Part shown: positions 36,879 to 37,658 of the stretch, in pieces
Numbering within the stretch: the first letter of the stretch is position 1
Layout: the number at the start of each line of letters is the position of its first letter
Origin: Escherichia coli
Lineage (GTDB): Bacteria; Pseudomonadota; Gammaproteobacteria; Enterobacterales; Enterobacteriaceae
Strand: one strand, 5' to 3'
Length of the DNA: 64,000 bases
Assembly (NCBI RefSeq): GCF_003334335.1
Contig: NZ_QOWQ01000025.1
The notes under the pieces: generated by a model
What the model was told of the DNA's origin: nothing
Databases searched by the model: none
What the model saw: the letters and a program-made list of their open reading frames with translations, nothing else
Position numbers and translations under genes: made by a program

Positions 36879-37658
36879 CTACACCGTAATTAATTTTACC
36901 CGTGTCTTCTGCAATGCCAGTTTATCCACCTCTGATACAGCATCATCGGTAATAATAATGTCAATTTTTTCGATTGGCAGTACCTGATTAAAACCGCGAC
37001 GGTTAAATTTCGATGAATCGAGAACGGCAATCACTTTATTAGCGGCGGTGACCATCGCACCGCTAATCGAATAACCTTCATTAAAGGTCGTAATACCATT
37101 AACCGCATCAATACCATCAGCACCGACAAACATTAAATCGGCATTAATATCCTGCAGGGAACGTTCAGCAATAGATCCATGCATAGATCGCGTTTTATGG
37201 CGGACCGTGCCACCGCAGACGACCAGAGTAATGTCTTTATTTTCGGAAAGGGCAAACGCAGCCGGGAGACTGTTGGTAATCACCGTGATATTTTTGGCGG
37301 TCATTAATCCTTCGGCGATAAGCATTGTGGTACTTCCGCTGTCGAGAATAACGGTCATCCCTTCATGGATCATTTTGACTGCCGCCTGCGCTATTCTGTT
37401 TTTGGGCGCGCTGGCGAGCTGAAATCGCTCTTTAAACCCGACTTCCTGGGTCTCGGTTTCACTATTACCGGACATTATTTTCGCCGCACCGCCATGAAAG
37501 CGCGTAACCACGCCTTTTTGTTCGAGAAAGCGCAAATCGGCACGGATTGTCGCTTCCGAGGCAGCAAATACTCCCGCCAGATCCTGAACAAGCACGGTTC
37601 CCTGTTCATTCACTAATTGGATGATCTTATTCCTTCGCTCGAATGAATTCATCGTCAT
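36879..37658 (-). CDS. gatR: DeoR-family galactitol operon repressor GatR (uninterrupted)
   Basis: 259-aa continuous ORF with N-terminal HTH. Confidence 0.85.
   Translation of the reverse strand: MTMNSFERRNKIIQLVNEQGTVLVQDLAGVFAASEATIRADLRFLEQKGVVTRFHGGAAKIMSGNSETETQEVGFKERFQLASAPKNRIAQAAVKMIHEGMTVILDSGSTTMLIAEGLMTAKNITVITNSLPAAFALSENKDITLVVCGGTVRHKTRSMHGSIAERSLQDINADLMFVGADGIDAVNGITTFNEGYSISGAMVTAANKVIAVLDSSKFNRRGFNQVLPIEKIDIIITDDAVSEVDKLALQKTRVKLITV

Follow-up and report, generated by a model that had tools for sequence, protein, structure and literature searches.

The window, that is, the whole 64,000-nucleotide stretch of Escherichia coli DNA that was analysed, carries gatR on its minus strand as a single open reading frame (ORF) of 259 codons that begins with ATG and ends with TAG (six-frame ORF list; Table 1). 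The gene is convergent with yegS (35898-36797, plus strand) and is followed upstream by the minus-strand genes gatD, gatC, gatB, gatA, gatZ and gatY, beyond which lie the fbaB terminator and fbaB itself. The same order is annotated in MDR_56, HS, MG1655 and BS74R-D, with gatR in each case beside yegS, at the promoter-distal end of the gat genes. The six structural Gat proteins are equal in length to those of HS, from which they differ by one to five substitutions each; hundreds to more than 1000 contigs carry each of these exact sequences.

Table 1. Features of the gatR locus and the adjoining gat genes, in window coordinates
Feature	Position	Strand	Basis
REP-like hairpin TGCCGGAT...ATCCGGCA between the convergent ends of yegS and gatR	36835..36866		Sequence read directly
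gatR coding sequence, 259 codons + TAG stop	36879..37658	-	ORF list; 100% nt identity to MDR_56 DeoR/GlpR regulator
C-terminal DeoRC sensor (effector-binding) domain, residues 85-238	36945..37406	-	Pfam DeoRC PF00455, E=4.1e-51
IS3E target site (GTC) of K-12, empty in the window; gene nt 303-305, codons 101/102	37354..37356		BLAST overlap, MG1655 sequence and annotation
IS1 target site of the E. coli B lineage, empty in the window	37419..37427		NZ_CP053597.1 annotation; BLAST blocks, 9-bp overlap
N-terminal DeoR-type helix-turn-helix (HTH) domain, residues 8-60	37479..37637	-	Pfam HTH_DeoR PF08220, E=2.9e-16
gatD-gatR spacer, 99 bp, with a G+C-rich hairpin (37730-37752) without a T-run	37659..37757	-	Sequence read directly
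gatYZABCD, genes under GatR control, all open	37758..43127	-	ORF list
gatD, 346 aa	37758-38798	-	ORF list
gatC, 451 aa	38846-40201	-	ORF list
gatB, 94 aa	40205-40489	-	ORF list
gatA, 150 aa	40520-40972	-	ORF list
gatZ, 420 aa	40982-42244	-	ORF list
gatY, 284 aa	42273-43127	-	ORF list
gatY control region	43128..43248	-	Promoter scan and pattern search
Intrinsic fbaB terminator, 9-pair stem then TTTTTTT	43249..43270	-	Terminator scan

HS and K-12 have the same gatD-gatR spacer as the window, base for base. No consensus promoter or terminator around gatR, this spacer included, passed the scan; by eye, the spacer contains a weak promoter-like sequence (TTCACC-17-TACACT). Transcription of gatR could come from read-through out of gatD or from a weak promoter of its own. 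Judging from the REP consensus, the hairpin between the ends of yegS and gatR is probably a REP element. REP/BIME-type repeats (e.g., GCCTGATGCGACGCTGAAGCGTCTTATCATGCCTACA) also occupy 43280-43431, between fbaB and its terminator; this region differs from K-12 and HS by indels and is 94% identical to them. On the other side of the locus, beside yegR, a full-length P2-family prophage extends over about 15000-34901 (projected coordinates) and carries capsid, terminase, portal, lysis, replication endonuclease and cox genes, a repressor-like HTH gene and an integrase gene (about 33888-34901); K-12 has only the PR-X remnant (ogrK, yegZ) at this position. The segment 30000-50000 of the window is covered to at least 80% in only 761 of 5,426 genomes.

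The preliminary description of this DNA had presented gatR as a continuous 259-residue frame encoding a DeoR-type repressor, and had named a premature stop or frameshift in advance as the finding that would speak against it. The coordinates agree exactly with the ORF list, which adds that the strand is minus, and neither an internal stop nor a frameshift was found within the gene, whether by translation or by alignment to the K-12-type locus. The translated protein begins MTMNSFERRNK. RefSeq/PGAP uses as start the in-frame ATG two codons further on (Met3, window 37652), which gives the 257-residue protein WP_001295426.1. The sole Shine-Dalgarno-like element, GGG, lies 9 nt before the Met3 ATG and 3 nt before the first ATG, and several family profiles align from residue 3 onward. 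Spacing and profile boundaries together mildly favor Met3 as the probable start; as the two ATGs are in frame with each other, gatR is uninterrupted whichever applies.

Both Pfam domains of a DeoR-type regulator are matched in the product. The DeoRC match spans model positions 5-159 of 160, and a weak similarity to RpiA agrees with the ISOCOT/RpiA-like fold of the sensor. GatR therefore has the two hallmarks of the DeoR/GlpR family, an N-terminal HTH and a C-terminal DeoRC domain of about 160 residues. At least 1000 contigs carry this exact sequence in its 259-residue form, and at least 1000 in its 257-residue form; this wide presence, together with the domains, shows that gatR is not a chance ORF.

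The highest-scoring NCBIfam models, both aligned over the full length, are AgaR (232.9 bits) and SrlR (226.3 bits). The equivalog cut-offs are higher, at 260 for AgaR and 350 for SrlR; the window protein was accordingly rejected as an AgaR or SrlR and is a paralogue of the two. NCBIfam holds no GatR-specific model; the assignment as GatR thus rests on sequence identity and synteny rather than on an equivalog HMM. The protein is 100% identical to E. coli GatR, both that of HS and that reconstructed from K-12 by removal of its insertion sequence (IS), and it is encoded by an uninterrupted frame at the promoter-distal end of gatYZABCD.

The annotation of MG1655 (NC_000913.3) lists gatR (b4498) as a pseudogene whose two fragments lie on either side of IS3E (record 2170171-2171428). 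Against the K-12-type locus, the window aligned in two BLAST blocks that overlap by 3 bp and are separated by 1,258 bp, and GTC stands on both sides of IS3E in MG1655 as a 3-bp target duplication. The statement in the preliminary description that K-12 gatR is disrupted by an IS is thus borne out by annotation and alignment alike, which place a 1,258-bp IS3E inside the gene; that the insertion makes the K-12 gat operon constitutive is what the literature reports (PMC5850726; bioRxiv 10.64898/2026.01.05.697630). The element is IS3E in the genome annotation and in the 2026 preprint (bioRxiv 10.64898/2026.01.05.697630), and IS1 in one passage of PMC5850726. The target site lies early in the sensor domain, so that in K-12 the HTH is cut off from most of DeoRC. 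Alignment with K-12 gatR, the check that had been proposed, places no IS in the window copy; in silico removal of the IS and one GTC from the K-12 gene yields a 259-residue ORF whose product is 100% identical to the window GatR. MG1655 gatC is also annotated as a pseudogene (retrieved locus 5922-7279); that of the window is open.

At the nucleotide level, the window and K-12 genes differ at 20 of 780 positions, all synonymous (pS = 0.11, pN = 0; neutral P about 2e-13), which indicates strong purifying selection on GatR. The HS gene and the K-12 gene without its IS are identical in nucleotide sequence, and K-12 gatR has gained no coding change since the IS3E insertion. The differences between the window allele and the K-12/HS allele are unevenly placed: 17 of the 20 fall in the 3′ 475 nt, where identity is 96.4%, against 99.0% in the 5′ 305 nt. 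Ten of them lie within 61 nt (window 37155-37215; gatR nt 444-504), a cluster that looks like an old recombination patch.

Among 5,426 complete E. coli genomes, gatR is present in 5,110. Matches covering at least 80% of the gene in one place were found in 4,757, as they were with a wider 1,351-bp query; this count is an upper bound for intact gatR, since copies split by a short IS (IS1) were joined and point lesions were not scored. With up to 4,757 genomes holding a one-place copy, the idea that an intact gatR is unusual was rejected. Uninterrupted gatR is the E. coli norm and the IS3-broken copy of K-12 the exception; the preliminary description was therefore correct in what it observed, and what it observed is the ordinary, already known wild-type state.

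Split copies, among the matches listed, belong to K-12 derivatives (AML001/002, J53 and KR2009) and to the B lineage. In T7Express (E. coli B lineage, BL21 family; NZ_CP053597.1), annotation and BLAST overlap place an IS1 in gatR with a duplication of 8-9 bp (retrieved locus 850-1616). The B-lineage insertion is an event independent of that in K-12, with another element at another site, and both sites are empty in the window. By these alignments, two classic laboratory lineages, K-12 and B, have independently lost gatR to IS elements. This accords with a published remark that gat is a hotspot of IS disruption in K-12 stocks (PMC9997739), and with the de novo IS insertions that a restored gatR gained during gut colonization (PMC5850726). 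KR2009, recorded as from "chicken faeces", has an IS3 in gatR with a gap between the pieces of 1,177 bp, compared with 1,258 bp in K-12. Its flanks are K-12-type (ogrK remnant; identical YegR, YegS and GatD proteins), and it was rejected as a natural recurrence of gatR::IS3 because the genome looks K-12-type; from its sequence, KR2009 could descend from K-12 or reflect an assembly artefact.

Upstream of gatY, the promoter scan returned a promoter-like sequence, TCGACA-18-CATTAT, at 43192-43163, and a CRP-like TGTGA half-site lies at 43201-43205. If the start predicted from this promoter is right, the half-site would be centered about 41.5 bp upstream of it, and if it is a CRP site at all, CRP might then act there. 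The fbaB terminator, a strong one, isolates the gat promoter from fbaB. A generic search for repeats in the region upstream of gatY yielded just short, unconvincing ones. The sequence TTTCATWWTGT occurs twice in the whole 64 kb, at 43161-43171 and 43212-43222, on the gat strand, in the same orientation and 51 bp apart; the CRP-like site lies between them, and one copy overlaps the -10-like hexamer. The pattern was derived by hand and post hoc from this same region, so its uniqueness in the 64 kb is weak evidence; we put both copies forward as no more than candidate GatR operators. Their resemblance to the TTTC-rich AgaR operator offers a lead. The promoter-proximal copy ends in TGT in the window and in TAT in K-12 and HS, a base change that is one of 4 substitutions within 98 bp of the gatY promoter region relative to those two strains.

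The function of the encoded protein can be addressed through HS. By direct translation the window GatR is identical in amino acid sequence to that of HS, and WP_001295426.1 is common to HS and MDR_56. Replacement of the MG1655 gatR pseudogene by the native HS gene restored regulation and kept galactitol use (PMC5850726). As the HS allele works in MG1655, the window encodes exactly the protein that has been validated as the gat repressor. Two more findings favor the family mechanism: silencing of gatR in LF82, whose GatR has a single different residue, and in CFT073 alters mouse-gut fitness (bioRxiv 10.64898/2026.01.05.697630), and in Salmonella GatR no longer represses once its HTH is deleted (PMC7972205). 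All gat genes are open and the gatD-gatR spacer matches that of both reference strains, K-12 and HS. The best inference, in line with the preliminary description, is an operon that is repressed and that galactitol induces, and we consider it very likely, as judged from the sequence, that gatR is a functional repressor here and that the gat operon is regulated and inducible by galactitol. Set against this reading are the substitutions in the gatY promoter, the rare gatY L194P allele and the lack of a consensus-grade gatR promoter.

In the mechanism that we propose, the N-terminal HTH of GatR would bind operator DNA at the gatY promoter, at positions predicted as above. The DeoRC domain would sense an effector derived from galactitol, by analogy with family behavior most likely a phosphorylated one such as galactitol-1-phosphate. 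When galactitol is absent, gatYZABCD (PTS uptake, dehydrogenase and tagatose-bisphosphate aldolase) would be off; when it is present, the operon would be de-repressed, probably with the help of CRP. K-12 lost this control on insertion of IS3E at codons 101/102. That insertion never occurred in the window strain, and its gat operon should therefore be regulated and inducible.

The main alternative is that gatR is functional and the pathway it governs impaired, through GatY Leu194Pro or the diverged promoter, so that the strain would be Gat-negative, or weakly or temperature-dependently Gat-positive, and to speak of inducible catabolism would overstate the case. The gat locus of the window is a mosaic. 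From yegS through gatC (35898-40201) it is 100% identical to that of MDR_56 except for one base in gatD; over 40205-43431 the identity is 98.9% in gatB, 99.1% in gatA, 98.4% in gatZ, 97.1% in gatY and 93.4% upstream of gatY, a drop that points to recombination, with a breakpoint close to where gatC meets gatB. At 99% identity or above, just 13 of the 5,426 complete genomes have the gatY-plus-promoter allele, the next best match being 97.2%; by this comparison it is a rare recombinant form. Residue 194 of GatY (window 42546-42548) is Pro in the window and Leu in K-12, HS and MDR_56; among homologues it is Leu in E. coli AgaY (1GVF) and Met in Gram-positive class II aldolases. Loss of gat function is, moreover, common in nature and in the gut, and gat-negative sweeps are on record (PMC5850726). 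MDR_56, whose gatR is identical to that of the window, has an internal stop at codon 49 of gatZ (retrieved locus 16383-17645) and so shows that gat function can be lost in nature alongside an intact repressor; this stop was sought in the window and is absent, codon 49 being Gln.

Against an impaired pathway, all six gat genes of the window are open, and the exact Pro194 protein is on 565 contigs; sources of the gatY DNA allele include humans, birds, soil, chicken and vegetables. Its persistence across such varied sources is that of a tolerated lineage allele, and judging from the alignment, residue 194 would stand immediately ahead of a helix, a place in which proline is commonly accepted. Pro194 is thus probably tolerated, and we consider impairment of the pathway unlikely. 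Somewhat less likely still is a related possibility, in which the rare gatB-to-gatY-promoter allele, with L194P and the base change in the candidate operator, would combine with the intact repressor to give an altered set-point or a temperature-sensitive or cryptic pathway. If true, this allele would represent, in nature, a variant of the on/off polymorphism of gat that gut-evolution experiments have revealed.

A second alternative is that the intact GatR represses too tightly, or responds poorly to inducer, so that the operon is effectively uninduced under natural (gut) conditions. CRISPRi silencing of gatR in LF82 and CFT073 alters fitness in the mouse gut and is beneficial, from which the authors infer a failure of gat de-repression there (bioRxiv 10.64898/2026.01.05.697630); LF82 GatR differs from that of the window only by I198V. 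The observation comes from one artificial gut model, however, and MG1655 given the identical HS allele used galactitol under regulation (PMC5850726). We therefore hold over-tight repression to be improbable. That the gatR frame is open and the gene nevertheless silent or its product inactive, a cryptic pseudogene with an operon constitutive as in K-12, draws on the failure of the scan to return a consensus promoter in the spacer, and is scarcely credible given the 0 nonsynonymous against 20 synonymous changes relative to K-12 and HS, the identity of the protein to the validated HS allele and a spacer the same as that of the functional HS locus.

The preferred reading, a functional repressor over an inducible operon, carries a practical prediction: galactitol use in the window strain should be regulated, not constitutive. 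It also serves as a reminder in annotation that K-12, and independently the B lineage, are atypical at gatR. To express gat constitutively is peculiar to laboratory strains and results from IS insertion, and most natural E. coli, the window strain among them, retain the repressor. For studies of gut colonization and experimental evolution, the state of gatR determines what selective value gat mutations have (PMC5850726).

Among known systems, AgaR and SrlR (GutR) are DeoR-family repressors of the N-acetylgalactosamine and glucitol PTS operons; they have the two-domain architecture in common with GatR but control other operons. Salmonella Typhimurium GatR likewise represses gat promoters through its N-terminal HTH, deletion of which abolishes repression (PMC7972205), although the Salmonella gat cluster has other gene content. 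E. coli GatR itself (b4498, formerly b2087/b2090; WP_001295426.1 in HS) is the same as the window protein in amino acid sequence, in its position between yegS and gatD and in its spacer. The K-12 allele gatR::IS3E (MG1655, W3110 and derivatives) is the same gene with the same flanks, in which the site that is empty in the window is occupied by the IS and gat expression is constitutive.
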